In this document: piece by piece, positions 8,890-60,829 of the stretch
How positions within the stretch are numbered: the stretch's first letter is position 1
How the letters are laid out: every line of letters begins with the position of its first letter
Assembly: GCA_044375675.1 (NCBI GenBank)
Contig: JBILMD010000007.1
Coordinates: 7,737 to 71,736 of the forward strand
DNA: 64,000 nucleotides
Direction of reading: 5' to 3'
From: Alphaproteobacteria bacterium
GTDB taxonomy: Bacteria; Pseudomonadota; Alphaproteobacteria; JAJTHO01; CANGYM01
Made by a program: the position numbers and the translations under genes
The notes under the pieces: model-generated
What the model saw: the letters and a program-made list of their open reading frames with translations, nothing else
Database searches by the model: none
Told to the model about the DNA's origin: nothing

Positions 8890-8900
8890 AGCATTAAACC

Positions 8901-10843: not shown

Positions 10844-10847
10844 AGGT

Positions 10848-11441: not shown

Positions 11442-11446
11442 TCGCA

Positions 11447-43640: not shown

Positions 43641-43959
43641 GGGGAAGGATGTTGGGGAAAAAATAAGTCAGCGTTGGACAAACTTGGATGAAAAAAGACA
43701 GAATACCCTTGGCAATTAAGGACTTTTTGGACAACAATGAACGGGGGAAATTTAAGATATGGCGGTGTGGTGCTGGTTGGATGATAATCGCTCTGTTGCT
43801 GACAAAGTACTGACGGCAAATGGGGCGTAAATCTAAAAATCATAGCGTAAAAAAGCCATAAATAGCGTACGCATTTGGAATTATTCAGATACATTGAAGC
43901 ATGCCTTGCTTTTTGAAGTTTATCTGTCTATTCTGGCTTTCAATCATGGATTAGACGGT

Positions 43960-45183: not shown

Positions 45184-45296
45184 GCTTAGAGTGCTGCTCC
45201 AAAGTTTCAATCTGCGCAGAAAAATGTCGATTGGTGGTAATTTTTGTGCAAAAACAGCGTTGCTCTTATCCAATATCCAACGTGCGAGTTCTATTT

Positions 45297-47036
45297 ATGG
45301 CTCTATTTACCCGACAGATTTTACAAGAAAAATCCTCTCACGATGTTTTTCAGCGCGGCATGGCAATTGCCCAAGACCGAGACGCCGTTGAACTGCTCAG
45401 CATGGATGCGCAAAAAATTGTTGCCATTGTTGAGGGAAGTAATACCTACAAAGCAACACTCACCCACAAAAGCAACGATTGGGAAGGTTATTGCAGCTGT
45501 CCTGCGTTCGCGGATTACGGCGGCTGGTGTAAGCATTTAGTGGCGGTGGGCTTGGTCGCGCTGGAAAATGCAGTCACCGCAACAGATACACAGATGATAT
45601 CGCCCTTGCGTCAGATTCAAGAGTACCTTGAGACGCTTCATGAAAAAGCACTGCAAGCCTTGCTGATGGAACAGGTGGAGAACGATAAAGCCTTACTTAA
45701 AAAGCTGCTCATCAAGGCTAATGCTGCCCAAGCCAAAGGCGGGAAACTCGATCTAAAAGCCCTGAGAAAGGCAGTAACAAACACGCTCACCATTCGCGAT
45801 TATGTGGAATATCGCGAGGCATATAGCTATGCTGCGGGGGTGCGTGAGCTGCTTGATAGTCTTGCTGATTTGCTGGAACAAGGGCACGCAGAAGCCCTGA
45901 AAGATCTGATGGAATTATGCTGGGACATCATGGAAGAAGCGATGGGGCGCATTGACGATTCCAATGGGGAAACAGGGCAGTTTATGGGGCGTATTGCTGA
46001 ATTGCACCTTGCGGCGTGTTTACAGGCAAAGCCTGAACCCGTTCGGTTGGCTGAAGAATTATTTGAACGAGAAATAGGCAGTGATTGGGATATTTTTGAA
46101 GGAGATGTTTATACAGACTATGCCGATGCCTTAGGCGAGACGGGGCGTGCGGCTTACCGTGCGTGTGTGGATGCAGCGTGGGAAAAGCTGCCCGCTCTTC
46201 AAGCGGGGGATAAGCAAGACTATGGTAAACGTTGGCGCATAACATGCCTCAAGAAACGTATGGTACTGGCAGAAGGCAATCTGGATGCGATTATAGCAGT
46301 GCTGTCAAAAGATCTTTCTAGCAGTTATTACTATCTTGGTATTGCCGAGCAGTGCGTGAAACACGAGCGCGATGATTTGGCTCTTGATTATGCCTTGCAG
46401 GGACTGCAGAATTTTGAGAGCCTCGATGATCGGTTGGTGGATTTTGTTACAACACTGGCCGAGCGGCAGGGTGATCCTGATCTTGCCTTATCATGGCATC
46501 AAAAAGCCTTCGCCAAAGAGCTTTCTTATCAACAGTTTGAACGACTGCGGAATATTGCCCGTAAACAAAACCGTTGGGAGGCATTGCGAGACGATGCACT
46601 ACAGGCGATTGAAAAAGCAGTCGTGGCGCAAACAACCGCAAAGCCGCAGAATCGCTGGCATGGAGCAGATGCGTCTTTACTGGTAAAAGTGTTGTTGCTA
46701 GAAGAACATTGGGAGCGTGCTTGGCAGACGGCTGTAAAACATGGTTGTTCGCAAGATCTTTGGCTGAAATTGGCAGTTTGGCGAGCGCAGGATCACCCTG
46801 CCGAGGTGGTGCCGTATTATCAAACGTGGGTGCACGCTGCCATTGAAGGACAAGGGAATAACGGCGGGTACGAGACCGCTCTCAAGCACCTGCTTACGCT
46901 GAAGCCCATCATGGAACGTTTAGGGCAGCAGGCGGCTTTCAATGCATTCGTTGCTGACATAAAAACCCGATATAAAGCCAAGCGCAACATGATGAAATTG
47001 TTGGAAACGCTGTCCTTATTCAAGGTTGCGGCGTAG
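45297..47036 (+). CDS. SWIM zinc-finger protein with long helical C-terminus
   Basis: CSCP...WCKHLVA (CxC..CxH); DDSNG motif; TPR-like helices. Confidence 0.78.
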   Translation: MALFTRQILQEKSSHDVFQRGMAIAQDRDAVELLSMDAQKIVAIVEGSNTYKATLTHKSNDWEGYCSCPAFADYGGWCKHLVAVGLVALENAVTATDTQMISPLRQIQEYLETLHEKALQALLMEQVENDKALLKKLLIKANAAQAKGGKLDLKALRKAVTNTLTIRDYVEYREAYSYAAGVRELLDSLADLLEQGHAEALKDLMELCWDIMEEAMGRIDDSNGETGQFMGRIAELHLAACLQAKPEPVRLAEELFEREIGSDWDIFEGDVYTDYADALGETGRAAYRACVDAAWEKLPALQAGDKQDYGKRWRITCLKKRMVLAEGNLDAIIAVLSKDLSSSYYYLGIAEQCVKHERDDLALDYALQGLQNFESLDDRLVDFVTTLAERQGDPDLALSWHQKAFAKELSYQQFERLRNIARKQNRWEALRDDALQAIEKAVVAQTTAKPQNRWHGADASLLVKVLLLEEHWERAWQTAVKHGCSQDLWLKLAVWRAQDHPAEVVPYYQTWVHAAIEGQGNNGGYETALKHLLTLKPIMERLGQQAAFNAFVADIKTRYKAKRNMMKLLETLSLFKVAA

Positions 47037-47058
47037 CGCATGATTATCTTGCGTGATC

Positions 47059-47074
47059 GTTAACGAATTGTTAA
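47059..47074. promoter_or_regulatory. Consensus CtrA binding site
   Basis: gTTAAcgaattgTTAA; reads TTAA-N7-TTAAC on the minus strand, about 62 bp upstream of the SPFH start. Confidence 0.55.
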
Positions 47075-47136
47075 TAGAATGTAAACGATAATCACTGCTC
47101 CCTAAAATGGGATGTCTTTGTTAATAGGAGAGAAAA

Positions 47137-48135
47137 ATGGGCTTAATGTCTTTTATCGGCAAACAGTTTGTTGATGTTATTCAGTGGACGGAAGAGCAGC
47201 AAGGCGTACTTGCCTATCGTTACCCCATGGAAGGCATGGAGATTCAAAATGGTGCGCAACTGGTGGTGCGGGAAACACAGCACGCTGCGTTTTTCAATGA
47301 GGGAAAATTTGCAGATCATTTTGCTGCTGGCACGTATACCCTCACCACGCAAACGCTGCCTGTCTTAACCTATCTGAAAAACTGGGATAAGGCGTTTGAA
47401 TCCCCGTTTAAATCGGATGTCTATTTTTTCAGTCTCCGCGAGCAGCTTGATCAGAAATGGGGCACCACACAGCCCATCACCATCCGTGATAAAGAGTTTG
47501 GGGCGATCCGTATTCGTGCTTTCGGCAACTATTCCTTTAAAATTGCTGATCAGGCGGTGTTCTGGACAAAACTGGTCGGCACAGCGGCGCAATACACGAT
47601 TGATGACGCCTCAGGACAATTGCGTGCTGCTATTCTTACAGCTCTTTCCAGTTTCCTTGGCAAAAGCGATATTGCCTTTGTCGATATGGCGGGCAACCAA
47701 GATGTGTTCTCGCAAAAATTGAAGGAGGCGGTTGCGCCTGCACTGGCAGAGTATGGGTTAGAGCTGCGCAGCTTTTTTGTACAAAACCTGTCATTACCCG
47801 AAGAACTGGAAAAACACCTCGATAAAGCGGCCTCGCAACGCATTGTGGGCAACTTGCAGCAATACACACAGTTTCAGGCGGCTGATAGCTTATCTGTTGC
47901 CGCCGCAAATGAGGGTGGTGTTGCAGGCGCAGGCGCAGGGCTTGGCGCGGGATTAGCTATGGGACAAATGATGACGGGCGCTTTACAGGGTATAAATACC
48001 CCAACCGCTGCGACATCCCCTGCAGAAGACCCAATTCAAATGCTGGAAAAATTAGGGGAACTTCTTAAAAAAGGCATTCTTACTCAGACTGAGTTTGATA
48101 GTAAAAAGGCGGAATTACTCAGCAGGATTAAGTAG
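47137..48135 (+). CDS. SPFH/Band-7 (YdjI-like) protein with C-terminal SHOCT-like domain
   Basis: SPFKSDVYF, KWGTTQPI, Gly/Ala-rich segment, LLKKGILTQTEFDSKKAELL. Confidence 0.82.
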   Translation: MGLMSFIGKQFVDVIQWTEEQQGVLAYRYPMEGMEIQNGAQLVVRETQHAAFFNEGKFADHFAAGTYTLTTQTLPVLTYLKNWDKAFESPFKSDVYFFSLREQLDQKWGTTQPITIRDKEFGAIRIRAFGNYSFKIADQAVFWTKLVGTAAQYTIDDASGQLRAAILTALSSFLGKSDIAFVDMAGNQDVFSQKLKEAVAPALAEYGLELRSFFVQNLSLPEELEKHLDKAASQRIVGNLQQYTQFQAADSLSVAAANEGGVAGAGAGLGAGLAMGQMMTGALQGINTPTAATSPAEDPIQMLEKLGELLKKGILTQTEFDSKKAELLSRIK

Positions 48136-48138
48136 TCC

Positions 48139-48777
48139 ATGCGGATGTTTGCCTGTCCTTCGTGCGGTGCCGAGGTGCCATTCCGCTCGTCATTAAGCGT
48201 GTATGCTGTATGTGCCTATTGCAACAGCATGGTGGTGCGGCGTGATGTGGATGTGGAAGCGATTGGGACTATGGCTGCCTTGCCAGAAGATATGAGTCCG
48301 CTGCAAATTGGGACAGAAGGCGTGTATCAGGGGGTACGTTTTAGCATTGTAGGACGGTTGAGAATTGGCTGGGAAAGCGGCACGTGGAACGAATGGTTTA
48401 TCGTATCTGATGATAGTCGCAAAGGCTGGCTTGCGGAAGCACAAGGGTTTTATGCGATAAGCTATGAACTGGCAGTACCAGATAGTTTGCCAGAGGTGAA
48501 TAGCCTTACTATCAATGATTTTATTACCCTTGAAGGTGATAGCTTGCGCGTCGTGGATATAAAAGACGCTACCTGCATAGGCAGTGAGGGTGAGTTGCCA
48601 TTTATAGCCCCCAAAGGCAGAAAAACCCGCTCCATTGATTTATTAGGCGCACATGGAGAGTTTGCCAGCATTGAAATTGAGCATAAAATGCAGGGGAATA
48701 CGCGTCTTTATGTTGGCAATTATGTGGCATGGGATGATTTAAAACTTTCCCATCTTCGTGAACTGGAGGGCTGGTGA
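48139..48777 (+). CDS. Zn-ribbon + DUF4178 protein
   Basis: CPSCG...CAYC, GTWNEW, GWLAE, EGELPF. Confidence 0.75.
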   Translation: MRMFACPSCGAEVPFRSSLSVYAVCAYCNSMVVRRDVDVEAIGTMAALPEDMSPLQIGTEGVYQGVRFSIVGRLRIGWESGTWNEWFIVSDDSRKGWLAEAQGFYAISYELAVPDSLPEVNSLTINDFITLEGDSLRVVDIKDATCIGSEGELPFIAPKGRKTRSIDLLGAHGEFASIEIEHKMQGNTRLYVGNYVAWDDLKLSHLRELEGW

Positions 48778-50162
48778 TGGTTGGTGAGCCTGTCCCTTCT
48801 TCCGAGAAACCCACAACGCAGCTTAGCCCTGCTTCTCTTTTGCCGCCGAATAAAGGCAAGCCCAAGGCGTTTAACTGCCCGCATTGTGGTGGGGTGGTAA
48901 CTCTAAAGGCAGTGGGGCTTTCTGTTTCTGCTGTTTGCAGCCATTGCGGTAGCATTATTGATGTTAATAATGAAAACTATCGGATTATTGATGCTTCGGG
49001 GCAGCATGACAGAGACATACTGATTCCTCTCGGAACACGGGGCGTGTTGTTTGATAAATCGTGGGAAGTTATCGGCTACATGGAACGCTCCAATGGGGCT
49101 GAATTTTACGAATATTTCTGGGAAGAATATTTGCTCTATAACCCTTATTATGGCTTTCGTTTTCTGGTGCAGGCGGAAGGGCACTGGAATTTTATGGAGG
49201 TGGTGCGCCGTGATATTGCGGGGGTAGGAGGATTGGACGATCTTTATCCAGAGGGAAGGCTTCTTGGAAAACGGTATAAAATTTTTCACACTGGTGTGGC
49301 GGTTGTTCATTACGTTAAAGGTGAATTTTACTGGCGCGTGCAAAAAGGCGAGAAAACTGCTGTTTGGGATTATATTTGCCCTCCCTCCCTTATTTCTGCA
49401 GAAAAATCGTTGGGCGAGTTGGTTGTTTCGCAGGGGGGGTATGTTGATCCATCGACTGTAAAAGCTGCGTTTAATATTCCTGAAATGCCCGTACGTAGAG
49501 GTGTTGCGCCCAATCAACCAGATCCTTATGCACACGGACTATTTTGGAAAATATGGTTTGTTGCGCTGATTGCCATGGTTATGGCATTTTTTATCCATTT
49601 AATCACGACAAGTAATGCCGTAAAGCAAGAAATTTCCTATTATACTTACACTGCTTCAGCAGCACAGAAAGAAGGGGAGCTAAGTAGTCCTGTCTTCACC
49701 CTGCCCAAAACAGAGAATGTGTTAGTAGAAAGTTATGCGCCGTTGGATAATGATTGGCTAGAATTAACGCTATCACTTGTCAACACACAAACGAATGAAA
49801 CCATAACAGCTCTGCAAGGAATGGAATATTACCGTGGTCAAGACAATGACGGCGCATGGGCAGAAGGAACCCGTCAAAGAACAACATGGTTTTCTGCTGT
49901 TCCTGCAGGAACGTATCAAATTCTCATGGATGTAGATGCAGGCGTCTTTGCGCAAGGGAGACAAACGCAATTTGTGGTTAAAGTGACGCGGAATGTTCCT
50001 TCCGTACAAAATTTCTGGGTGTGTATACTCCTTATTCTGCTCTATCCTTTGTTTACGTTCCTTCGTTGGTATATGTTTGAAAATAAACGTTGGTCGCAAA
50101 GTGATTTTGCGCCTGCCTTATATAGAGCATCAGAAGGAGGTGGTGATGACGATGATTCCTAA
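48777..50162 (+). CDS. Zn-ribbon + DUF4178 membrane protein
   Basis: CPHCG...CSHC, WEEYLLYNP, GEFYWRV, GVAPNQP; two TMs flank an extracytoplasmic domain. Confidence 0.75.
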   Translation: MVGEPVPSSEKPTTQLSPASLLPPNKGKPKAFNCPHCGGVVTLKAVGLSVSAVCSHCGSIIDVNNENYRIIDASGQHDRDILIPLGTRGVLFDKSWEVIGYMERSNGAEFYEYFWEEYLLYNPYYGFRFLVQAEGHWNFMEVVRRDIAGVGGLDDLYPEGRLLGKRYKIFHTGVAVVHYVKGEFYWRVQKGEKTAVWDYICPPSLISAEKSLGELVVSQGGYVDPSTVKAAFNIPEMPVRRGVAPNQPDPYAHGLFWKIWFVALIAMVMAFFIHLITTSNAVKQEISYYTYTASAAQKEGELSSPVFTLPKTENVLVESYAPLDNDWLELTLSLVNTQTNETITALQGMEYYRGQDNDGAWAEGTRQRTTWFSAVPAGTYQILMDVDAGVFAQGRQTQFVVKVTRNVPSVQNFWVCILLILLYPLFTFLRWYMFENKRWSQSDFAPALYRASEGGGDDDDS

Positions 50163-50295
50163 AAAATTTATCATCTATTGCACCACTCTTGTGTTGTTGC
50201 TGGGATTTGCCAATCATAAAGGTTATGTTGTGGCAAGCCTGTTTAGTAGTGTACAGAAAGCTGATAAATCCGCCCCCAATCGTTCCCACAAATAG
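50146..50295 (+). CDS. Small single-TM protein (~49 aa) ending in HK
   Basis: AGGAGG RBS, hydrophobic N-terminus, overlaps the upstream gene and ends 9 nt before DUF350. Confidence 0.6.
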   Translation: MTMIPKKFIIYCTTLVLLLGFANHKGYVVASLFSSVQKADKSAPNRSHK

Positions 50296-50304
50296 GAGAA
50301 AACC

Positions 50305-50526
50305 ATGGAAGACTTTATCAACATGAAATACGTTTTTAATGCCCTCATTTTTTCAGGTATCGGCATGTTGGTGTTTGTCATCAGCTTTGCGCTGCTTGAT
50401 TTACTCACGCCCCGAGTAAGTATCTGGAAAGAGCTGGTGGAGAAACAAAATATTGCCGCAGCTATTTTCCTAGGTGCCATGGCAATTGGGCTTTCGACCA
50501 TTATTGCCTCAGCCATTCACGGCTAG
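50305..50526 (+). CDS. DUF350 two-TM protein
   Basis: DLLTP...ELVEKQNIAAAI...IIASAIHG. Confidence 0.82.
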   Translation: MEDFINMKYVFNALIFSGIGMLVFVISFALLDLLTPRVSIWKELVEKQNIAAAIFLGAMAIGLSTIIASAIHG

Positions 50527-50529
50527 ATT

Positions 50530-52047
50530 TTGGCCCCGCTGCTTCTCATTTCCGTTATTATCATTGCCACCTGCGGTCTTGTTTATGAGCTGATCGCAGG
50601 TACGGCGGCGAGTTATCTGCTGGGTGATTCGGTCACGCAGTTTTCCACCGTGATAGGATGTTATTTGTTTGCCATGGGGATTGGTTCGTGGCTAGCGCAG
50701 TATGTAAACCGTAATCTGCTGGGTTTTTTTGTCCGTATAGAAATTCTGGTCGGGGTGATTGGCGGGTGTTCGGCGGCGCTGTTGTTTTTGCTGTTTGACC
50801 ATGTGGCATCGTTTTATGTCCTGCTGTATTCATTGGTGGGAATTATCGGAATATTAGTGGGGGTGGAAATCCCGCTGCTGCTCAGGATTTTGAAAGATCA
50901 ATTTGATTTTAAGAATCTTGTTTCCCGTGTGTTGGCGCTTGATTATCTGGGTGCGCTGTTTGCCTCGATTTTGTTTCCACTAGTTTTAGTGCCGCATTTG
51001 GGGCTGATTAAGTCCAGCTTTATGTTTGGTATCCTTAATATTGGGGTGGCGTTATGGCTGCTGTATTCCTCTTATAGCCATCATATACCTGCTGTTCGTT
51101 ATTACCGCGTCTCGGCAATTGCCGCGATGTTGTTGCTGCTTGCAGGCTTTATTTATTCTGAAAAATTAATGAGTGTGGCCGAGGGCAGCGCCTATCAAGG
51201 TACCGTTATTTTCGCTGAATCAACGCCATATCAGCGAATTGTGGTGACGCGGGCGGGGCAGGATGTGCGGCTGTTCCTCAACGGCAATCTACAATTTAGC
51301 TCGGCGGATGAATACCGCTATCATGAAGCATTAGTTCATCCGGCTTTAGCATCACTTGATGCGCCGAAACGTGTGTTGATTATTGGCGGCGGTGATGGGT
51401 TAGCGCTGCGCGAAGTGCTTAAATATCCGTCGATTGAAAATGTGGTATTAGTGGATTTAGATCCAGCTATGACGCGGCTTTTTTCCGACCATTCGCTGCT
51501 GTCTGCACTTAACCAGCAGGCGCTGGCCTCGCCGAAGGTAAAGGTGCTCAATAAAGATGCGTTCATTTGGTTGAAAGATGTGGTGGGAAGTGCCACGCCA
51601 CCACAGTTTGATGCGGTGGTTATAGACGTGCCAGATCCTTCCAATTTTTCCATCGGCAAACTCTATTCGGTGTCTTTTTACCGCCTGCTCCATAAAATTG
51701 TTCACGATAAAAGTCGAATTGTGGTGCAAAGCACCTCACCGTTGGTGGCGCGAAAATCTTTCTGGTGTGTGAATAATACGTTAGAGGCAGCAGGCTTTAA
51801 CACTACGCCCTATCATGCTTATGTGCCATCGTTTGGCGAATGGGGCTTTGTGATGGCGGGGCGTGGCACTTATAAAATGCCTGCCTCTTATCCTAATGGC
51901 TTGCGCTATGTGAGCGTAGATACCGTGCGCGAAATGTTTCATTTCCCCAGCGATATGGCACGGGTGAATACGAAAATTCAAAAACTTGATGACCAAGCCC
52001 TGATTCAATATTTTGAAGAAGAATGGGCACGGTATTTGGTGTATTAA
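50530..52047 (+). CDS. speE: Membrane-bound polyamine aminopropyltransferase (N-terminal ~7-TM MFS-like domain)
   Basis: CGLVYEL, AMGIGS; YHEALVHP, IIGGGDG, VDLD, IDVPDP; TTG start. Confidence 0.88.
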   Translation: MAPLLLISVIIIATCGLVYELIAGTAASYLLGDSVTQFSTVIGCYLFAMGIGSWLAQYVNRNLLGFFVRIEILVGVIGGCSAALLFLLFDHVASFYVLLYSLVGIIGILVGVEIPLLLRILKDQFDFKNLVSRVLALDYLGALFASILFPLVLVPHLGLIKSSFMFGILNIGVALWLLYSSYSHHIPAVRYYRVSAIAAMLLLLAGFIYSEKLMSVAEGSAYQGTVIFAESTPYQRIVVTRAGQDVRLFLNGNLQFSSADEYRYHEALVHPALASLDAPKRVLIIGGGDGLALREVLKYPSIENVVLVDLDPAMTRLFSDHSLLSALNQQALASPKVKVLNKDAFIWLKDVVGSATPPQFDAVVIDVPDPSNFSIGKLYSVSFYRLLHKIVHDKSRIVVQSTSPLVARKSFWCVNNTLEAAGFNTTPYHAYVPSFGEWGFVMAGRGTYKMPASYPNGLRYVSVDTVREMFHFPSDMARVNTKIQKLDDQALIQYFEEEWARYLVY

Positions 52048-52059
52048 AGGAGAAAAGAA

Positions 52060-52968
52060 ATGGCAGGCGGTTCAAGAAAAGTTATTATTATTTCGCTCTT
52101 TGCAAATTTTGGTATTGCAGTCTCGAAGCTGGCGGGCGCATTTTTTACTGGTAGCGCGGCCTTGATGGCCGAAGCAGTCCACAGCTTTTCTGATTGTGGC
52201 AATCAGGGGTTATTGCTGTATGGCGGCGCGGTTGCAAAAAAACCGCCCTCTGCCCGTTATCCGTTGGGACGCGGCAAGGAGATGTTTTTCTGGTCGTTTG
52301 TGGTGGCGTTGCTGCTGTTTACTATGGGCGGGATGTTTAGTTTGTATGAAGGCATTCATAAGCTGCAACATCCAGAAGCGTTGCATTATCCCGTGGTGGC
52401 TATTGCCATTTTGTTGGTAGCTATTGCTTTGGAATCTTTTTCAATGTGGGCGTGTTATAAAGAAGTGCAGCTGCAAAATACATATGGTTCACTTTGGCAA
52501 TGGATACAGCGTACATCATCAGCGGATTTACTGGTGATTTTCCTTGAGGATTTAGCCGCACTGCTAGGGTTATTCATTGCGCTGGCGGCGTTATCCGCAG
52601 CGTGGATAACTGGCAATCCGTTTTGGGATGGATTGGGATCGTGCGTAATCGGCGTGCTATTACTTGTTGTTGCTGTCGTGTTGGCGCGCGAAGTTAAGCC
52701 AATGCTGATTGGTGAGCGGGCATCAACGGATTACAAGAAAAGTCTTGCCCCCCTTGCTACACAACATTTTTCTGGCGGGAAATTGCTTACAGTGCTGGCA
52801 CTGCAACAAGGCGTTGGTGCTGTGTTATTGGCTTATAAACTACACCCAGGAGATTTGTCCGTTTCCACTGCGGTTCTCATGGATAAAATCAACGCTTTTG
52901 AGAAAGCCGTACGCGCACAACACCCAGAAATTCAGTGGCAATTTGCTGAAATTGATGTTGAGTCGTAG
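52060..52968 (+). CDS. Cation diffusion facilitator family transporter
   Basis: AEAVHSFSDCGNQ, YPLGRGKE, FLEDLAAL; 6 TMs. Confidence 0.85.
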   Translation: MAGGSRKVIIISLFANFGIAVSKLAGAFFTGSAALMAEAVHSFSDCGNQGLLLYGGAVAKKPPSARYPLGRGKEMFFWSFVVALLLFTMGGMFSLYEGIHKLQHPEALHYPVVAIAILLVAIALESFSMWACYKEVQLQNTYGSLWQWIQRTSSADLLVIFLEDLAALLGLFIALAALSAAWITGNPFWDGLGSCVIGVLLLVVAVVLAREVKPMLIGERASTDYKKSLAPLATQHFSGGKLLTVLALQQGVGAVLLAYKLHPGDLSVSTAVLMDKINAFEKAVRAQHPEIQWQFAEIDVES

Positions 52969-52970
52969 TC

Positions 52971-53348
52971 ATGGAAGCTGTCTTGGAGATTTTGGCGGAA
53001 GTTATCATTCAGCTTTTCGGTGAGATGTTGTTGGAATTGGGGTTTCACAGTATGGCGAGTGTTTTTGAGCGCAAACGCTCCCCTACTATGATTTTTTTTG
53101 GCTACTGCTTATGGGGGGCAATCCTTGGAGGAATCAGTTTATGGCTTTTTCCTGTATCTTTTGTCAAAACACCTGAAGTGAAAATTATTAATCTTATTAT
53201 CACGCCAATTGCTGTTGGTGGTGCCATGGTGTTGATTGGAAAATGGCGCACGCATAAGGGGCAAGATCTTATCCCTCTCAACAAGTTCTTCTACGGGTTT
53301 ATTTTCGCTCTTAGTATGGCGCTAGTGCGTTATGGGTGGGCGAAATGA
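52971..53348 (+). CDS. Hypothetical membrane protein
   Basis: Acidic-hydrophobic N-terminus and 3-4 TMs; coupled to both neighbours. Confidence 0.65.
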   Translation: MEAVLEILAEVIIQLFGEMLLELGFHSMASVFERKRSPTMIFFGYCLWGAILGGISLWLFPVSFVKTPEVKIINLIITPIAVGGAMVLIGKWRTHKGQDLIPLNKFFYGFIFALSMALVRYGWAK

Positions 53349-54976
53349 ACCTCACCCGCCGCCAATTTGCTAAACTTTCTCTTGCGGCTGTTGGGGCAAC
53401 CGCACTCAGCGGCTGGGGCTTGAGCAAAGGGATAGGAAGCATCGGCTCAATACCGCCCATCACGGGGCAGATTATTGGTGCCTCGGCAGCTTTGGGGCAC
53501 AAACTGCGCACTGGCGGTTTTCCCGCACCTAATCGAACGCTGGAACATGATATTGTCATTATCGGTGGCGGTATTGCAGGACTGGGTGCGGCATATATCC
53601 TAAACAAAGCGGGCGTAGAGAATTTCACCTTGCTGGAACTGGAGAACCACACAGGAGGTAATTCTTCTAGCGGAAAAAATGCGGTCTCTGCCTATCCGTG
53701 GGGGGCGCATTATGTGCCGTTACTCACCGAAGAATCCACCGCCCCGCGTCGTCTGTTTGAAGAACTAGGTATTATTACAGGCTATGAAAAAGGTCTCCCC
53801 GTCTATAATGACTTTTACCTGTGTGCTGCCCCCCATGAACGACTGTATCGTTTGGGGCGTTGGCAGGATGGATTAGTACCTAATGTTGGTACAACAGCAG
53901 AAGAGCAGGCGCAATTTAAGAAGTTTTTTGTACTCATGGAAGGGTATAAAACCGCCAAAGGGGTGGATGGTCGCAAAGCCTTTGCTATTCCTGTTGATAA
54001 AAGTTCCACAGATACAGTGTTTCGCGCTCTTGATACCCTGACTATGACCGATTGGCTGCACCAGCACGACCTTACTGCGGAGCCGTTACACTGGTATGTA
54101 AACTACTGCTGTCGTGATGACTATGGAACCTTAGTGAGCGATACATCTGCATGGGCGGGCATCCACTATTTCGCCGCGCGCACGGGGCGGGCAGCGAATG
54201 CTGACCCGCAGGATGTGGTAACATGGCCAGAGGGTAACGGTTGGCTGGTAGAAAAACTGCGAAATCCACAAAAAACACAAGTGCAAACGAACGCGTTGGT
54301 GTACAGCGTTCGCAAAACACCAAGCAGCGTTGCGGTTGATTACTATGATGCAAGCACTCGTGAGACCGTGCGCATAGAAGCAAAAACTGCTATTATGGCA
54401 ACGCCGCGCTTTATTGCGGCGCGGCTTACAGACGGTTTGAGCGCGGAGGGTTTTTCCTATTCGCCGTGGGCGGTGGCTAATATTACACTGAAAACATTGC
54501 CAAAAACCGGAGGTGCGCCGTTATCATGGGATAATGTGTCATATAACAGCCCGCTGCTCGGCTATGTGGTTGCAACCCACCAGATACCTCAAGCGCATCC
54601 GCTTAAAACGGTGCTGACGTATTACTGGCCGCTGACCCATATATCTCCTTTAGAGGCACGGAAAGAGGCGTTAGCTCGCAGTTATCAGGACTGGCAGGAT
54701 GCTTTCTTACAAGACCTTTACACCACCCACCCCGATCTGAAAGGACAGGTGGAACACCTTGATGTGTGCTTGTGGGGACACGCAATGGCTAGGCCAATAA
54801 GGGGATTTATTTGGGGCAAAGAACGGCAAGAAGCGTTGCGCCAAGAGCCGCCGCTGTTTTTTGCCCATTCGGATATGAGCGGCATGTCTATTTTTGAAGA
54901 AGCATACACCCACGGCGTGGTGGCAGCGGAACAAGCAATGACGTACCTGCGTCATCCCTATCAATCGGTGCTGTGA
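53345..54976 (+). CDS. Tat-signal FAD-dependent oxidoreductase (amine-oxidase-like)
   Basis: TRRQF twin-arginine signal; IIGGGIAGL, WGAHY, YCCRDDYG, TWPEGNG, HSDMSG.SIFEEA. Confidence 0.82.
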   Translation: MNLTRRQFAKLSLAAVGATALSGWGLSKGIGSIGSIPPITGQIIGASAALGHKLRTGGFPAPNRTLEHDIVIIGGGIAGLGAAYILNKAGVENFTLLELENHTGGNSSSGKNAVSAYPWGAHYVPLLTEESTAPRRLFEELGIITGYEKGLPVYNDFYLCAAPHERLYRLGRWQDGLVPNVGTTAEEQAQFKKFFVLMEGYKTAKGVDGRKAFAIPVDKSSTDTVFRALDTLTMTDWLHQHDLTAEPLHWYVNYCCRDDYGTLVSDTSAWAGIHYFAARTGRAANADPQDVVTWPEGNGWLVEKLRNPQKTQVQTNALVYSVRKTPSSVAVDYYDASTRETVRIEAKTAIMATPRFIAARLTDGLSAEGFSYSPWAVANITLKTLPKTGGAPLSWDNVSYNSPLLGYVVATHQIPQAHPLKTVLTYYWPLTHISPLEARKEALARSYQDWQDAFLQDLYTTHPDLKGQVEHLDVCLWGHAMARPIRGFIWGKERQEALRQEPPLFFAHSDMSGMSIFEEAYTHGVVAAEQAMTYLRHPYQSVL

Positions 54977-56061
54977 TGCGTGCGCAACCGTGGATTTTCT
55001 CAGCCCGTTTTGACAGTGCATTTATTCTAGCACCAGCCCTTATTGTATCTTTGCTGGCGATTCTTTTGTACGAACAGGCGCAAGCGCTTGCTGAAACACC
55101 GCTGTGGCTATGGGTGTTATTGATTGTGGGAGTAGATGTTGCCCATGTCTATAGCACCCTGTTTCGTAGTTATTTTAACCGCCATGAGTTGCAGGCGCGA
55201 CCTGCCTTATACACCTTGGCGCCGCTGTGCGCTTTTGTTGGCGGTTGTATGCTTTATAGCATTGACGCATTGGTGTTTTGGCGGGCGTTGGCCTATCTTG
55301 CCGTGTTTCATTTTGTGCGGCAACAGTACGGTTTTATGATGCTGTACAGCAGGGGCGAAAAGAATCCGCCAGCTTGGTATAAACGCATCGACAAAATGGC
55401 GATTTACGGTGCAACGCTGTTTCCGTTGCTCTATTGGCACACCCATACGCGCACATTCCATTGGTTTGTTAAGGGGGATTTCTGGCACCTGCCAGTGCCT
55501 TTGCTGGCAAGTGCAGCGGGAGGTTTGTATATACTGATTTTGTTGGTCTATGTTTATAAAGAATACTGCCTGTGGCGTAAGGGACAGTTCAATCTGCCGC
55601 GTAATTTGCTGTTATTGGGGACGATGCTGTCATGGGGTATCGGCATTGTGCTGTTTGATAACGATTTGCTCTTCACCGCCACCAACGTAATTGCCCATGG
55701 CATACCGTATTTGGCGTTAACGTGGGGCTATGGGCGCAACGAAGCCGTACTCAACGCGCCGTGGTGGAAACCGCTGTTTCGACCTACTGCTGCGCCCTTA
55801 TACATCGGGGGGTTGGTATTGTTTGCCTACCTCGAAGAAGGACTGTGGGACGGGTTACTGTGGCGCGAGCATACAGCCGTTTTCAAAGCGTTTCAAAACT
55901 TGCCGTTTGTCCACACGCCAGAAATATTGATGTGGCTCGTGCCGTTGCTTGCTTTGCCGCAAGCAACCCATTATATTCTGGATGCATTCTTATGGCGGCT
56001 GCACAGCGGTGCCCCTGAATGGAAACGTATTCTTTTTTTAGAGCAGAAGATAGTAATATGA
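54976..56061 (+). CDS. Polytopic membrane protein with four TM His motifs
   Basis: ~8-9 TMs; DVAHVYST, FHFVRQQYG, AHGIPY, THYILD. Confidence 0.7.
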   Translation: MRAQPWIFSARFDSAFILAPALIVSLLAILLYEQAQALAETPLWLWVLLIVGVDVAHVYSTLFRSYFNRHELQARPALYTLAPLCAFVGGCMLYSIDALVFWRALAYLAVFHFVRQQYGFMMLYSRGEKNPPAWYKRIDKMAIYGATLFPLLYWHTHTRTFHWFVKGDFWHLPVPLLASAAGGLYILILLVYVYKEYCLWRKGQFNLPRNLLLLGTMLSWGIGIVLFDNDLLFTATNVIAHGIPYLALTWGYGRNEAVLNAPWWKPLFRPTAAPLYIGGLVLFAYLEEGLWDGLLWREHTAVFKAFQNLPFVHTPEILMWLVPLLALPQATHYILDAFLWRLHSGAPEWKRILFLEQKIVI

Positions 56062-56537
56062 GATCTGTCATTTCTCCAGGTATTCACCTGTTACTCGATT
56101 TTTATGGGGCAAAAAATTTACAGGATAAACAAGGAATTAATAATGTGTTACATGATGCTGCTACGGCTTGTGGAGCAACTGTCTTACAAATAATACTACA
56201 TTTTTTTGGCGAAGAGGCGTGTTGTACACCTAACTTAGAGTACGGTGTAGAGGGTTTGTTATACGATGGCTCTGGTAAGCAGGCTGGCATTACTGGGGTG
56301 GCAATTCTAGCCGAATCTCACATCAGTATTCACACATGGCCGGAAACTGGTTATGCCGCGCTGGATATTTTTGTGTGCGGAAATTGTAATGCGCACAAAG
56401 CTGTGCGTGTGTTGCAAGACTTTTTTTGCCCTGAGAGAATGGTGATTGTAGAGCAGATGCGTGGTAATGAATCAGACAAAAAATATGACACCACTATGAC
56501 TGTCAAACAAGTTGACACGACTGACACCGCTGGTTGA
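56058..56537 (+). CDS. speD: S-adenosylmethionine decarboxylase proenzyme
   Basis: GIHLLLDF, GATVL, GVAILAESHISIHTWPE (self-cleavage E|S), DIFVCG; ATGA overlap with the upstream gene. Confidence 0.9.
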   Translation: MRSVISPGIHLLLDFYGAKNLQDKQGINNVLHDAATACGATVLQIILHFFGEEACCTPNLEYGVEGLLYDGSGKQAGITGVAILAESHISIHTWPETGYAALDIFVCGNCNAHKAVRVLQDFFCPERMVIVEQMRGNESDKKYDTTMTVKQVDTTDTAG

Positions 56538-56617
56538 CAGAATTGGTTGACACGGGTTGACAAGGAAACGGCAGAAAAGCTGATAGTTCAGGAGGTTTTG
56601 TCAACCGAATGTCAACC
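56501..56617. repeat. Convergent GGTTGACA/TGTCAACC iteron-like array
   Basis: gttgaca at 56511, ggttgaca at 56532, 56545 and 56555; tgtcaacc at 56599 and 56610. Confidence 0.7.
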
Positions 56618-56849
56618 TTGTGAAAACGCCTGACGCTAAAGAAATGGTGCGCTCAGCCCACCCGCATAGGTTTTGAGCGAAACAGTACCTGCTTTTTTTG
56701 CCAGTGAAAGGAACCCAAGCCCCCTAGCCGATGGTTTGACTGTAGGGTGTTGTTTTTATGATATCAAGCATTAATACTGACCGCCCGCAACCGTGCGCAA
56801 ACAAAAGCATTGGCGCGTATGCTGACAACACACGCGCCGTTGCTGGTGA

Positions 56850-57554
56850 TCAGGAAGCAGCCCGCCATTTGGTTTCTCGCTCCAGTTGTTCCAGCTTATA
56901 CTTGCTGTCACCAAAGAGCTTGAGTTGCTCTGCAAGATGCACGGCAGCAGTGTCGGCCTTCCATGCTTCATCGAGAATATCAGCGTTATAGAGTGGATGC
57001 GTATCTACCGGGCGGCGGAACAAGTTATGATTGGCATCCAGCAGCGACGGGATTTCCATTTCAAACAGGCTGCGGGTGTATCCCGTCACAGTGCCGATGG
57101 TGATTTGCACCGCATACAACCGAAACATGATAGCGTTGAGGTGTGCGACTGTCTGCCGCCATTCTTCCTCCAAATCAGCGCGATAGGTTTCAGACAGCTC
57201 AAACAGCAGCACGGTCATGCTTTCCATCTGAGCAGGCAACTGCTGTTGCAGTTCTGCCTGCTGCTGATGCAGGGCTTCTTCGGCGGCCTGTAAGCGTTCC
57301 TGCCTTTCGCGTAAAGCAGACAGATTAACAGCAACGGCTTGTTCCCCTTCGGGCGTGCTGTCACCCAGCAGGCTTTGCGCCTCCAAGGCGCCCGCTTGGC
57401 GGATGATAGCCTGCCGTTCGGTTTCAAAGGCGGCTTTTTTATCGGCCAGGGCTTTGAGGGCAGACGCCAGTTTCTGCTGTTGTTCAAGGTAGGTTAGGAT
57501 GGGTTTGAAGGCTTTCTGCGTGGCAGCCAGTTGTTTTTGGGTAGTGGTTTTCAT
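56850..57554 (-). CDS. Hypothetical coiled-coil protein
   Basis: GGAGA RBS before ATG 57554; Q/E/A/L-rich heptads. Confidence 0.65.
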   Translation of the reverse strand: MKTTTQKQLAATQKAFKPILTYLEQQQKLASALKALADKKAAFETERQAIIRQAGALEAQSLLGDSTPEGEQAVAVNLSALRERQERLQAAEEALHQQQAELQQQLPAQMESMTVLLFELSETYRADLEEEWRQTVAHLNAIMFRLYAVQITIGTVTGYTRSLFEMEIPSLLDANHNLFRRPVDTHPLYNADILDEAWKADTAAVHLAEQLKLFGDSKYKLEQLERETKWRAAS

Positions 57555-57632
57555 GGGATGTCTCCGGTAATTGAATGGATGGGAAAAATGCAAAAACACG
57601 GAAGCATCAGGGCGGCAGCCCGCTGGGTGGGC

Positions 57633-57844
57633 GTGACGGACAGGTGACGCGACCGTGACGCGGAAAACCCTCCCAACACCGCCGTTGTGCTGAGATGACG
57701 CACTTTTGACCGATACCTTTATATATAGGGGGGATTATATTGATAACCGCCCATATACGATGGGTGGGGTTTAAGTATGTCATCTCAGCACTTCCGCCAT
57801 TTTTTGGCCATTTTTGTGTCACAACTGCGTCACCCATGCGTCAC
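57633..57844. repeat. Symmetric iteron array, putative replication origin of the element
   Basis: GTGACG at 57633, 57644 and 57655; 13-bp IR at 57687 and 57779; AT-rich core; GTCAC units at 57816, 57827 and 57838. Confidence 0.75.
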
Positions 57845-60108
57845 CAGTCTTTTGATTCATACGGCGGGGTGTACGCAGTGGCGGCACGGCGCAGGGCAAG
57901 CCCGAGAAACAGGCGGCCATTACGGGTGCGTTTGTATTCAACACCGACAGCATTCGCCTGCACCCGCTGGACAAATCCGTTGATGGTGGGCAGTTTCTCA
58001 TTGGGGAAACCCTCGGCGGTGGCCCAGGCATGAAAGTGATCATAGACGGTACGAGTAGCCAAGGCTGGCATGGCGCCGATGATGGGCCGTACCTCCAGGC
58101 ATTCCTCCAGCCAGGCGAGTACTGGGTCAGCGCCAAGCATCCAGTCCACCAGTGCCTGTTTGCTGCTGGGCGGTACGGTGAAATTGCGCTGGCGGATCAG
58201 CCGTGAGGCTCCCTCAACCACCCACGCCAGCAGCAGATCGGTTTCTTCATCGGCGATGCGCCGACCGATGCCTTCAATGCGCTCATCCAGCGGAATCACC
58301 CGGTTAAACGTGATGACCAGCAGACGGCGCTGAACGCCCCTGTCCATGCCGCCTTGAAAAGGTGGCAGGGTGTTGGTGGCAAACAGGTGCTGGGCAATGG
58401 GGCGAAACTCAACGCGGCTTTTGTAAACGTCGCGCCCCTCTACTGGTTCACCGGTAATGACGGCTTTAAACACTTCAGAAGCCACGGCAGTTGCAGACGA
58501 TAATTCGTCGCTGGCATTGAGCAGTTTACCAGCCAATGCCACAATATGACGCTCATCGCCCAGGCGGGCGGGTGTGATGGTGCAGACAGCGGTAGCAGGG
58601 AGAATGCCCCGTGCCAGATCCAGTACCTGACTTTTGCCGTTCTCGGCGCATTCCCCTTTGAGCACCACGGCGCGGGGTTGTAACAGGCGGGTGGCATAGC
58701 CCAGCGCGGCGCAGCCATACACTTCGGCCAGCAGTTGAATTTTTTCACGACTGTCGGCATCGTCTTTAAAAATACCGCCCAGAAAACGCCCGAGTAAGGT
58801 TTCCGCTGGAATGTGTGCGGCACTGACGTGCCAGCATCCCGGTAAAGTATGGCGACTGCGGTGGTCAGGGCTGTACGACTGTAGCACGGGACTGCCATCG
58901 GCATTAAACTTGATAAAGCCGGAGCGGCAGTTAATGCCAACAGTACAACGCTCAAAGAAATCTGGTAAGGCCGTTAAAGCCGCCATTTCATGCAAGATGG
59001 AGTCAATACGGGTTTTGCTGAGCTTAACGCAGGTTGCCTCGCCTTTAGGCGTTTTATAGGGTGCGCCGTCATAGCGGTGCACAGCAAGCCGCAACGTGTG
59101 TTCTGGGAGCATTTCCCAGTGTGTGGCGGTATATTGCCAGAACTGCCCTTCGGCGTGGATCAGTTTACCGCGCACCTGTTCCAGATCAGCACGGACATGG
59201 CGGGCAATTTCCACATCAGAACCAATATCAACCAGTTGCAGGGAATTGCTCTCTGCTTTTGCGGCGCCATTATACCGGCTCGCCCCCGCTTGCTGCATAG
59301 CTGCGGTGAGGCCGCTGTGCAGCGTGGCTGTTGCCTCCGCATCCGGCAACCCAAGCTGTTGCGCCTGCTGGCGCAGCATATCTTCCGCTTCACGTGCTGA
59401 TACTTTTCCCTTGCTGACATGCCGGCCAAGGGCAAAAGCTGCCTTGTTCAGCGCATCATTGCGGTGGCCGTTCTGCGCCTGACGCAGGTCATTGAGAATA
59501 GCTTCTATGGAGCCTTTCTTCTTGGAAGTGCCTGGTGCTGGCACCAGCAACTGCAACCACTGTTCACTTAAGGGTGATAGCGGAATATCCCAGATGCTTT
59601 TCCCCGCCTGCCACTGATACAGATGGCCTGAACTGTGTATGCTGGGCGGCAGAATGACATAGCCACTCTCCCCGCGCACATCAACATGCGGCACAATGCC
59701 GGTGGCGTTGCGGATGGTGTGCGCATCGGGATACCGGAAGTAGAGATGCCAGCCCCGACCGGTTTTCACGGTGGGAACAGGCAGTGCTAGAATATCAGAA
59801 ACACCAGCCGCCTGTTCCAACGCTGGAACCGCCTGTTCATCGTCGATATCAATGACCAGCAGATTCGAGACACGCCCAGTGACAACGGCAATATTGGCAC
59901 TGGTGAACTGTTGCCGCCAATCTTCCAGCATGGGAGTATTCGGGGGTGTTTGCTGAAAAGGCTTCCACTTCACCAGCGGCTTTTTGCTCTGCCGTGCCAC
60001 AGGGATGACAGACCAGCCCAGATCAGCATACGCTGCGGCAGCGCTGGCGAATGGCAACGCCGGTGGTACAGGTTGGGAAACGGCGATATTTTGAATGCGC
60101 ACTCCCAT
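57841..60108 (-). CDS. Bifunctional Prim-Pol primase fused to a D5/P4-type SF3 helicase
   Basis: GWSVIPV, NIAVVTG, VIDID, TGRGWHLYF, DVRG..GYVILPPSIH; Walker A ENGKS, ASDEL, FATNTLP, RRLLVITF. Confidence 0.85.
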   Translation of the reverse strand: MGVRIQNIAVSQPVPPALPFASAAAAYADLGWSVIPVARQSKKPLVKWKPFQQTPPNTPMLEDWRQQFTSANIAVVTGRVSNLLVIDIDDEQAVPALEQAAGVSDILALPVPTVKTGRGWHLYFRYPDAHTIRNATGIVPHVDVRGESGYVILPPSIHSSGHLYQWQAGKSIWDIPLSPLSEQWLQLLVPAPGTSKKKGSIEAILNDLRQAQNGHRNDALNKAAFALGRHVSKGKVSAREAEDMLRQQAQQLGLPDAEATATLHSGLTAAMQQAGASRYNGAAKAESNSLQLVDIGSDVEIARHVRADLEQVRGKLIHAEGQFWQYTATHWEMLPEHTLRLAVHRYDGAPYKTPKGEATCVKLSKTRIDSILHEMAALTALPDFFERCTVGINCRSGFIKFNADGSPVLQSYSPDHRSRHTLPGCWHVSAAHIPAETLLGRFLGGIFKDDADSREKIQLLAEVYGCAALGYATRLLQPRAVVLKGECAENGKSQVLDLARGILPATAVCTITPARLGDERHIVALAGKLLNASDELSSATAVASEVFKAVITGEPVEGRDVYKSRVEFRPIAQHLFATNTLPPFQGGMDRGVQRRLLVITFNRVIPLDERIEGIGRRIADEETDLLLAWVVEGASRLIRQRNFTVPPSSKQALVDWMLGADPVLAWLEECLEVRPIIGAMPALATRTVYDHFHAWATAEGFPNEKLPTINGFVQRVQANAVGVEYKRTRNGRLFLGLALRRAATAYTPPYESKDW

Positions 60109-60599: not shown

Positions 60600-60829
60600 G
60601 ACCGCACCCCGCTGCCCGCAGGCTGGCTGAAATAATGCTCATCAGCGGTTGATTGGCAGAGGCGGGATTCCTCGAAGGCCTCCACGTCTTCCAGCCGGTA
60701 TTTGACGCGGCCGCCCACCTTGATAAAGCGCGGTCCCATGCCGAGCCACCGCCACCGCTCCAGCGTGCGCACCGAGATGCCGAGCCGCCGTGATAAATCG
60801 ACTTGGTTTAAATGCCTGATGTCCGTCAT
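60596..60829 (-). CDS. AlpA/excisionase-like HTH DNA-binding protein
   Basis: LNQVDLSRRLGISVRTLERWR..GPRFIKVGGRVKY; AGGAG RBS. Confidence 0.85.
   Translation of the reverse strand: MTDIRHLNQVDLSRRLGISVRTLERWRWLGMGPRFIKVGGRVKYRLEDVEAFEESRLCQSTADEHYFSQPAGSGVRS

Follow-up and report, generated by a model that had tools for sequence, protein, structure and literature searches.

The eleven co-directional genes at positions 47137–56537 of the window, by which we mean the whole 64,000-nucleotide stretch analysed here (an Alphaproteobacteria bacterium, assembly GCA_044375675.1, contig JBILMD010000007.1, positions 7,737 to 71,736), are a mobile member of a widespread envelope module that has already been noticed in print and remains functionally unsolved. 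The core of this module comprises SpeD, one or two zinc-ribbon DUF4178 proteins, a protein of about 50 amino acids (aa) ending in ...HK, DUF350, a seven-transmembrane (7TM) domain fused to SpeE, and an oxidase exported by the twin-arginine translocation (Tat) pathway, with a 362-aa protein of ten transmembrane (TM) helices as a frequent extra. The module would, with a rough probability of 45%, carry out the vectorial aminopropylation of a polyamine-type amine followed by oxidative trimming in the periplasm. An initial sequence-only survey, hereafter the preliminary description, had proposed that the block aminopropylates a substrate and then oxidises it at the envelope; this stays the most economical reading. 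All eleven open reading frames (ORFs) of that description were confirmed on the plus strand, and its domain labels match the Pfam and NCBIfam results, as listed in Table 1.

The block was found to be conserved across genomes. A scan of one genome per species returned at least 583 SpeE relatives, of which the best 80 loci, with 53–70% identity to the SpeE of the window, were kept and compared by tblastn with the window proteins and by all-against-all clustering of ORFs; the window itself is subtracted from all counts over these loci, which are lower bounds, many loci ending at contig edges. The 80 loci come from at least five phyla and include Alpha-, Beta- and Gammaproteobacteria, Chlorobaculum, many Bacteroidota, Oligoflexus, Leptospiraceae and Acidobacteriota, with cultured carriers in Asticcacaulis, Pleomorphomonas oryzae DSM 16300, Labrys, Chitinophaga ginsengisoli DSM 18107 and Dyadobacter endophyticus. 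With facultative genes in parentheses, the recurring order is (SPFH)–(SpeD, in some clades)–DUF4178–small ORF–DUF350–SpeE–oxidase–(362-aa protein)–(SpeD). The oxidase is present in 76 of the 80 loci, DUF4178 in 75 (as two genes of ~210 and ~430 aa or as one of ~630 aa, the single gene being frequent in Bacteroidota), DUF350 in 72, directly 5' of SpeE, and SpeD in 62, while SpeE stands in a different context at three to four loci (L061, L081, L087 and partly L083). The SPFH gene, which had been counted among the core, occurs in only 22 loci, with the orthologue directly 5' of DUF4178, and is a clade-specific extra. The preliminary description had further singled out a cation diffusion facilitator (CDF) and two additional membrane proteins as special to this copy; that view holds for the CDF (0/80) and the 125-aa protein (1/80, L014), which are lineage-specific local additions, but not for the 362-aa protein, which recurs in 50 loci. 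The genes outside the block differ from locus to locus, and since the neighbouring genes are not conserved, the block can be regarded as a self-contained module.

Moreover, a second set of 20 further loci, including some whose halves are transcribed divergently, was drawn from other genomes of the phylum, and the SpeE cut-off of NCBIfam PRK03612 was passed in 43 of 401 sampled genomes of the same phylum, the genome of the window counted. The co-occurrence anticipated in the preliminary description is thereby borne out in both sets, and the block is one functional unit rather than a chance assembly of neighbours. Several local rearrangements were also observed. The split arrangement is seen at L105, L106 and L109 (genomes G321, G113 and G315; Pseudomonadota), where SPFH–DUF4178a–DUF4178b–small gene–SpeD face SpeE–oxidase on the opposite strand and the small gene travels with DUF4178, not with SpeE; the DUF4178–DUF350 pair is tandemly duplicated in L027 (Solitalea agri, 6083–11488); and L015 and L018 carry an additional gene of 220–253 aa between DUF350 and SpeE.

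Both halves of aminopropyl transfer, SpeD and SpeE, are present as had been described, and by their motifs both appear catalytically intact. The SpeE of the window scores 648 bits against PRK03612 (cut-off 472, residues 4–502 covered) and only 20 bits against the NCBIfam model 'fused MFS/spermidine synthase', and the GGGDG and D366-x-P-D369-P motifs are invariant in 65 aligned sequences. Both aspartates of D-x-P-D-P are kept in aminopropyltransferases that use di- and polyamines. The nearest solved chains are 7xif, 1uir of T. thermophilus and the thermospermine synthase 6bq2 (E 1e-30 to 1e-26), the first two being polyamine aminopropyltransferases, and no membrane-fused form was found among solved structures. 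Seven hydrophobic segments are seen in an alignment of 81 SpeE sequences, and the 7TM domain alone gives no significant Pfam match at E up to 10. It is conserved more strongly than the catalytic domain and holds E20, D33, E71, E113, D138 and N170 invariant in the 65 sequences; because this conservation and these acidic residues exceed the needs of an anchor, they argue for a functional cation channel or cation-binding site. A search for elongated fusions containing SpeE gave nine matches, five of which (P0001–P0005, ~1000 aa) were inspected; these apparent SpeE–oxidase fusions, from high-GC metagenome contigs and with the Tat signal retained, are frameshift read-throughs of adjacent genes joined by Arg-rich out-of-frame linkers, and are uninformative on topology.

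The SpeD of the window retains ESH...HTWPE and the Cys of DIFVCG, with H at +5 and C at +20 from ESH, positions equivalent to S63, H68 and C83 given for the AdoMet decarboxylase (AdoMetDC) of T. maritima in PMC10407285; the catalytic Cys is likewise kept in other Proteobacteria and in Acidobacteriota. This SpeD also has an insertion of about 20 aa before the GITGV strand and a C-terminal extension of about 20 aa, neither of which occurs in 16 aligned orthologues. In a variant of 90–97% identity from run X4, the SpeD stretch is replaced by other letters, with joints at 56037–56284 and 56506–56596. The only SpeE and the only AdoMet_dc protein of the genome are those of the cluster, and none of six same-genus genomes has a SpeE match, so that the module is taken to supply its own donor.

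These same findings would suit an ordinary pathway, namely membrane-anchored synthesis of a common polyamine such as spermidine, paired with an oxidase for salvage or catabolism, brought by the island described below to a streamlined freshwater bacterium whose congeners lack SpeE and in which the catalytic motifs of both enzymes are intact. For such a pathway soluble SpeD and SpeE suffice, yet five or six more membrane-associated genes are kept in order across phyla; the SpeE is not of the canonical soluble kind, being fused to seven TM helices within a block of 6–9 genes; and the oxidase is exported. In addition, the abstract of Li et al. 2019 is said to report that class 1b AdoMetDC genes are found together with a membrane-protein/SpdSyn-like fusion in thousands of cases, that carriers of such fusions are without spermidine, and that the fusion fails to complement an E. 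coli speE mutant. DUF350 is reportedly clustered with the fusion genes there, and an acceptor other than putrescine is said to have been proposed. On the strength of these reported results putrescine is an unlikely acceptor, and ordinary polyamine synthesis as a whole appears improbable.

The Tat-signal flavoenzyme named in the preliminary description was recovered, with TRRQF in the window and a Tat RR motif in 55 of 72 orthologous ORFs; the orthologues without it mostly show RK variants, and many in Bacteroidota show a Cys after the signal. Its AlphaFold2 (AF2) model has a predicted local distance difference test (pLDDT) value of 90, and the best Foldseek matches are MAO-A, bacterial monoamine and putrescine oxidases and P. 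aeruginosa SpdH (E 1e-22 to 1e-21, TM-score ~0.63, 14–17% identity), with the SpdH structure 7d9j at E 1.6e-21 and TM-score 0.64, while protoporphyrinogen oxidase first appears at rank 46. In the sequence profile only the FAD-binding start aligns with solved proteins, the match to SpdH covering SpdH residues 2–117.

The 362-aa protein, for which no member among 40 gives a Pfam match beyond noise, has ten invariant residues in the 40 aligned orthologues (H58, H113, H242, H333, D55, D231, E288, E289, D293 and D337) and an AF2 model of pLDDT 92. No solved relative was found: the best Foldseek match against the Protein Data Bank has E 0.29, and in a wider structure search the best Z is 6.6 (rhodopsins), within noise for helical bundles. 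Relatives in the structure Atlas are 'hypothetical' clusters, one cluster automatically named beta-carotene monooxygenase, and TPR-fused forms, the latter of 741–753 aa with long TPR-repeat regions and from Acidobacteriota. Membership in the Brp/Blh beta-carotene dioxygenases was considered and rejected, hhalign against two PF15461 (BCD) proteins giving 0.3% probability with a Blh profile of two sequences only. The Lys/Arg distribution over the loops (14.2 inside versus 3.7 outside) points to ten TM helices with both termini inside, and in this orientation H156, D231, N238, H242, E288, E289, D293 and H300 lie in the outer half. The family may be an enzyme or a redox partner in the membrane whose site faces the periplasm.

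Charge bias was also used to orient SpeE, where loops 2–3, 4–5 and 6–7 carry 9.6 Lys+Arg per protein versus 1.8 in the other loops over the 81 sequences; by the positive-inside rule and with seven helices, the N-terminus would lie inside and the catalytic domain outside. There are accordingly indications that the SpeE catalytic domain, the tail of the small protein, the oxidase and the conserved face of the 362-aa protein share the periplasmic side. In the proposed working, SpeD, an AdoMet decarboxylase by family and motifs, would make decarboxylated AdoMet (dcAdoMet) in the cytoplasm; the membrane SpeE would transfer the aminopropyl group of dcAdoMet to an amine of the di- or polyamine type at the membrane; the acid-lined 7TM domain may take the cationic donor or the product across; and the exported oxidase, probably with the ten-TM protein as its membrane partner, would trim or oxidise the aminopropylated product on the periplasmic side. 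The DUF4178 proteins, the small protein, DUF350 and SPFH might serve as a membrane scaffold or gate, by analogy with YdjG/H/I. The outcome would be an envelope-associated polyamine or amine modification and no cytoplasmic spermidine pool.

Several observations weigh against this reading. The SpeE domain, if turned outward as its charges suggest, faces away from the cytoplasmic dcAdoMet, SpeD having no signal peptide; possibly the acid-lined 7TM domain conducts dcAdoMet or the positive-inside rule fails for SpeE, or else the SpeE domain is cytoplasmic nonetheless and the product is exported through the 7TM part. The nearest folds of the oxidase score almost equally well. A pathway for free polyamines gives no reason for the near-universal small protein with its terminal Lys. 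In Bacteroidota, the SpeD homologues linked to the cluster (L027–L082, encoded 5' of DUF4178) have Ser in place of the catalytic Cys (DVFLSN or DIYLSN versus DIFVCG), and may not be ordinary AdoMet decarboxylases. The pyridoxal-phosphate decarboxylases of the 1.55-Mb genome are LysA and one unassigned protein, leaving the source of a polyamine precursor unclear; the latter (Orn/Arg/DAP family, 434 aa, G000:C10:84798–86102, equal to L098:1312–2616, far under the LysA cut-off) is the sole visible candidate for diamine production in the genome. The spermidine-free carriers and the failed complementation reported for the fusion count here as well, and none of the cluster genes has a known product, substrate or phenotype.

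The small gene deserves a fuller account. A Shine-Dalgarno sequence, AAGGAGG, lies at 50134–50140, five nucleotides (nt) 5' of its ATG at 50146, and a gap of 140–370 nt between the second DUF4178 gene and DUF350 is found in almost every locus. The longest ORF in this gap, taken with no motif condition, ends in H[KR] in 42 of 61 loci and in GGK or RGK in seven more, and the ...HK ORF is present as well in the six loci for which a spurious longer frame was taken. With a filter for a TM helix plus the motif, the small protein is found in 73 of the 80 loci, the C-termini being YHK (44), FHK (10), GGK (7), HHK (6), SHK (3) and others (3); as the terminal K was a selection criterion in the alignment behind these tail statistics, the unbiased evidence is the longest-ORF count and the second locus set. 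In that set of 20 loci, a survey of all frames gave 390 small hydrophobic ORFs, of which 10 terminate in HK or GGK, one per locus and directly 3' of the second DUF4178 gene in all 10 loci with DUF4178, and none was found in the 10 loci without DUF4178. Only the single TM helix, a Gly after it and the C-terminus are conserved (mean column identity 20%), the tail is frequently Gly/Ser-rich, and no Pfam family covers the protein. The N-terminal charge favours N-in/C-out in 47 of 68 sequences. In several lineages a Cys follows directly on the hydrophobic segment, and because this resembles a lipoprotein signal, the small protein may be a candidate for the 'Ctha_1186 lipoprotein' of Ravi et al. The tail types are also unevenly distributed: of 54 loci with HK tails, 45 also have the 362-aa protein, against 0 of 7 with GK tails, which is a hint only, the lineages being related; the seven proteins with ...GGK or ...RGK (L085–L092), from Acidobacteriota and one betaproteobacterial metagenome-assembled genome, all stand in loci without the 362-aa protein.

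The small lysine-ending membrane protein is therewith a new candidate target of the module. Its C-terminal Lys, on a flexible periplasmic tail, could itself be the acceptor, aminopropylated by an outward SpeE and processed by the Tat oxidase and the ten-TM protein, which would resemble a hypusine-like modification or a cationic shuttle arm of the DltX kind. Consistent with this are the presence of the gene in essentially every DUF4178 locus (10/10 against 0/10 in the independent set), a C-terminus that is the sole conserved part besides the TM helix, the predicted N-in/C-out topology with its lipoprotein-like Cys in several lineages, the same membrane side for SpeE (by charge bias), the oxidase and the outward residues of the ten-TM protein, and a Lys side chain with the aminobutyl length of putrescine; DltX moreover sets a precedent for a C-terminal microprotein residue as group carrier in what PMC12148441 describes. 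Against it, the second Asp of D-x-P-D-P is better suited to a distal ammonium than to a C-terminal carboxylate, dcAdoMet has no known source in the periplasm, and the terminal K had been chosen as a criterion in the tail statistics. Predicted complexes of SpeE with the small protein gave ipSAE values of 0.08 and 0.09 against a mark of 0.32, in runs made without controls and so not counted for or against this reading. We consider this acceptor rather unlikely. Doubtful in much the same way is its extension to a trans-membrane protein-aminopropylation machine, in which dcAdoMet would pass through the 7TM domain to an outward SpeE, the Lys of the microprotein would be modified and the arm then oxidised or transferred; if true, it would be a periplasmic bacterial counterpart of hypusine-type Lys modification or a cationic shuttle in the style of DltX, and would explain the purpose of the 'polyamine-independent' AdoMetDC.

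The acceptor could alternatively be a lipid or a macromolecule of the envelope (for instance the phosphatidylethanolamine headgroup, peptidoglycan or the amines of lipopolysaccharide), in a charge modification like those of MprF or Dlt. The small protein would then, in the manner of Lpp and OutB, use its C-terminal Lys to act as a tether or adaptor to peptidoglycan. The fusion of SpeE to a conserved polytopic domain and the periplasm-facing parts of the module would suit such a role, as would the 'aminopropylation of other substrates' that PMC11237479, in its treatment of these operons, attributes to Li et al. 2019, and the linkage of C-terminal-Lys proteins to peptidoglycan by L,D-transpeptidases covered in bioRxiv 10.1101/2024.09.03.610988. 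The Pfam and NCBIfam scans, however, returned no lipid-handling or peptidoglycan-binding domain in any member, the cluster holds no L,D-transpeptidase gene, and the amine oxidase would be left without a clear role, so that this acceptor seems quite improbable compared with the polyamine-type amine preferred here.

Among the scaffold-type genes, SPFH encodes a soluble Band_7_1-type protein whose sequence shows a hydrophobic, Gly/Ala-rich stretch at about residues 255–285 and which is the only Band_7_1 protein over the cut-off in the genome; similarly, the cluster copy of DUF350 is the only one, and PspA_IM30 is absent from the 99.3%-complete genome. Both DUF4178 proteins begin with a putative CxxC...CxxC zinc ribbon. 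The 462-aa one has two hydrophobic segments and the tail GGGDDDDS, and its C-terminal part gives no significant Pfam match at E up to 10, while the 212-aa one has no solved relative; structural relatives of DUF4178 in the Atlas are only other DUF4178 clusters. By analogy with the B. subtilis proteins discussed below, the zinc-ribbon DUF4178 proteins may dock SPFH and the enzymes at the inner face of the membrane.

The eleven genes are horizontally acquired cargo of an integrative serine-recombinase island at tRNA-Ser. The island reaches from window 43766 to window-equivalent 64452, just beyond the window end (20.7 kb), and is absent from a same-genus genome (G004), in which window 43765 is joined directly to position 72189 of the contig of the window (G000:C20) and the neighbouring recQ is 97% identical. 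A 9-bp direct repeat, ATATGGCGG, stands at both junctions (window 43757–43765 and G000:C20:72189–72197, window-equivalent 64453–64461), the insertion being at the 3' end of tRNA-Ser(GGA) at C20:72192–72282; no tRNA lies within the window, the tRNA-Ser being just past its end. The GC content is 0.44–0.52 over the block versus 0.526 for the genome, and the flanks are higher. Three additional lake-water runs, from different studies, hold contig fragments that cover the whole stretch 44000–63000 at ≥99% identity, and a variant of 90–97% identity in a plankton run bridges the SpeE–CDF junction. The primase stretch 57948–60483 is almost uncovered in run X4, to which no meaning is attached. As both this junction and those from CDF through the 125-aa protein to the oxidase are bridged by lake-water or plankton metagenome contigs of other studies, an assembly chimera as the source of the gene arrangement is excluded.

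The left end of the island holds two genes matching PDC-S01 and PDC-S62, candidate single-gene defence systems of PADLOC. Oxidation of aminopropylated amines can produce reactive aldehydes. A mobile setting beside such candidate defence genes might suggest an anti-phage or abortive system, in which SPFH and DUF4178 would sense membrane damage and toxic aminoaldehydes or peroxide would be made in the periplasm. Against PADLOC, however, six of eight cluster genes searched (all but DUF350, CDF and SpeD) gave no match and two gave fold-level matches only (SpeE to mad2, E 2e-13; the oxidase to C3a186, a desaturase model), most of the 80 loci have ordinary, non-conserved flanks, and the module of the 43 carrier genomes among the 401 often stands on large chromosomal contigs; a defence role is accordingly very improbable, and the vectorial aminopropylation of a polyamine-type amine remains preferred.

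Within the block, junction gaps of 3, 9, 3, 12 and 2 nt are found and the other junctions are overlaps of 4 nt, except that the small ORF runs 17 nt into the preceding gene, the largest overlap. SpeD most likely starts at ATG 56058, with a 4-nt overlap, rather than at the ORF opening 56019, and the oxidase may start at ATG 53345 instead of 53336. A promoter and terminator scan gave signals at chance level and was not used.

Table 1. Genes of the eleven-gene block and of the surrounding island, with positions in the window.
Feature	Position	Strand	Location	Evidence
SPFH protein, Band_7_1 + C-terminal SHOCT, 332 aa	47137–48135	+	block	Pfam Band_7_1 E 9e-76, SHOCT E 4e-07
Zinc-ribbon + DUF4178 protein, 212 aa, predicted cytoplasmic	48139–48777	+	block	Pfam DUF4178 E 2e-13
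Predicted zinc-ribbon + DUF4178 + TM + ~130-aa outer domain + TM + acidic tail, 462 aa	48774–50162	+	block	Pfam DUF4178 E 1e-16
Small single-pass membrane protein, 49 aa, C-terminus ...NRSHK	50146–50295	+	block	Shine-Dalgarno and conserved C-terminus
DUF350 (YjfL family) two-TM protein, 73 aa	50305–50526	+	block	Pfam DUF350 E 1e-12
7TM domain fused to polyamine aminopropyltransferase (SpeE), 505 aa	50530–52047	+	block	NCBIfam PRK03612 E 8e-195
CDF (cation diffusion facilitator), 302 aa	52060–52968	+	block	Pfam Cation_efflux E 3e-43, TIGR01297
125-aa TM protein, no family	52971–53348	+	block	no Pfam/NCBIfam match
Tat-signal FAD amine oxidase/dehydrogenase, 546 aa, TRRQF	53336–54976	+	block	Pfam Amino_oxidase E 8.5e-09, residues 80–534
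Ten-TM His/Asp/Glu protein, 362 aa, no family	54973–56061	+	block	alignment, AF2 model, Lys/Arg bias
SpeD, class 1b AdoMet decarboxylase, 159 aa	56058–56537	+	block	Pfam AdoMet_dc E 2e-30, TIGR03330 E 1e-30
AAA/DUF4143 ATPase	43894–45183		island, left end	PADLOC PDC-S01 E 1.6e-118
SWIM/DUF6880 protein	45231–47036		island, left end	PADLOC PDC-S62 E 3.5e-60
PrimPol/D5 primase	57841–60111	-	island
DUF2924	61175–61708		island
Large serine recombinase	61657–63048		island

For this widespread family with a private AdoMetDC, three new handles are offered here, namely the linked microprotein with its C-terminal His-Lys or Gly-Lys, the recurrent ten-TM family, whose predicted outward-facing residues resemble metal ligands, and three independent topology indications for the periplasmic side. 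The island carriage and the local additions of the CDF and the 125-aa protein are likewise new. Since the module was moved as cargo of a small island into a 1.55-Mb streamlined freshwater genome otherwise without SpeD, SpeE and PspA, this suggests that it is self-sufficient and confers a selectable envelope trait.

With regard to known systems, the fusion that Li et al. 2019 is said to describe shares with the SpeE of the window an N-terminal polytopic domain joined to a SpeE-like domain, a linked SpeD, reportedly functional in that study, and DUF350. The block had been put forward as an undescribed system, but the neighbourhood is already in print (Ravi et al. 2024, mSystems, PMC11237479), the only paper found by full-text searches on DUF4178 with and without DUF350; the accompanying statement that no functional characterisation exists was nearly right, the function remaining unsolved. 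In its sections on these operons, PMC11237479 presents combinations of 7TM-SpeE, DUF350 and DUF4178 and a variant in which Band-7 + 2TM + SHOCT replaces PspA/CesT, with AdoMetDC and a polyamine oxidase added, suggests polyamine monitoring or the aminopropylation of other substrates, and cites Li et al. 2019 for the AdoMetDC linkage as well as for the latter idea; in the literature the 7TM-SpeE family is also reported from actinobacteria. The block of the window agrees with that variant, as it is set out there, in 7TM-SpeE, DUF350, DUF4178, Band-7 with a hydrophobic segment and SHOCT, AdoMetDC and oxidase, and in having Band-7/SHOCT instead of PspA/CesT, the genome being without PspA_IM30 and the 2TM part corresponding to the hydrophobic stretch seen by eye; relative to that account, the ten-TM protein, the ...HK protein (unless it is Ctha_1186), Tat export, the mobile island, the CDF and the 125-aa protein are additional here. 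The E. coli yjfIJKLMC operon and the actinobacterial DUF4247/DUF2617 variants likewise combine DUF350 (YjfL) with polyamine-type enzymes and envelope proteins, but as characterised in the same paper they have an ATP-grasp ligase like glutathionylspermidine synthetase or other partners, not SPFH, SpeD and the oxidase.

The scaffold-type half of the block resembles the PspA–YdjGHI (SamGHI) system of B. subtilis, where, according to PMC13713150, YdjG/H, small membrane proteins, recruit the cytosolic SPFH protein YdjI/SamI to the membrane, YdjG having two zinc ribbons and a TM segment according to PMC11237479; a control search found a Band_7_1 member in B. subtilis. Compared by description (PMC13713150, PMC8581546), both have an SPFH protein with zinc-ribbon/TM proteins, whereas the cluster here is without PspA or a TPM-domain protein and the operon described there is without polyamine enzymes. 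The small protein has parallels in DltX of D-alanylation, a membrane microprotein that, in the account of PMC12148441, passes a group from enzyme to enzyme on its conserved C-terminal residue, and in Lpp and OutB, periplasm-exposed proteins with a C-terminal Lys that, by the findings presented in bioRxiv 10.1101/2024.09.03.610988, can be linked to peptidoglycan by L,D-transpeptidases. All are tiny and membrane-anchored, with only an extracytoplasmic C-terminal motif conserved; in DltX, as portrayed there, the residue shuttles a cationic group, in Lpp/OutB the terminal Lys is the reactive amine, and the motifs, FxYxxF or R/K-K as given in those sources versus [YFH]HK, show no sequence relationship, so that the analogy is one of working only. 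Finally, the discussion of PMC11107197 proposes that SpeD2/SpeE2 of P. aeruginosa, together with Tat-exported SpdH, give surface norspermidine. A dedicated SpeD/SpeE pair and a Tat-exported FAD enzyme that oxidises polyamines would be common to both systems, while in P. aeruginosa SpeE2 is soluble, the genes do not form one operon, and SpdH has 620 aa with a haem domain, versus 546 aa for the oxidase here at 14–16% identity. By analogy of enzymes and export, SpeD2/SpeE2/SpdH appears to be the closest worked-out parallel to a module that would aminopropylate an amine and then trim it outside.

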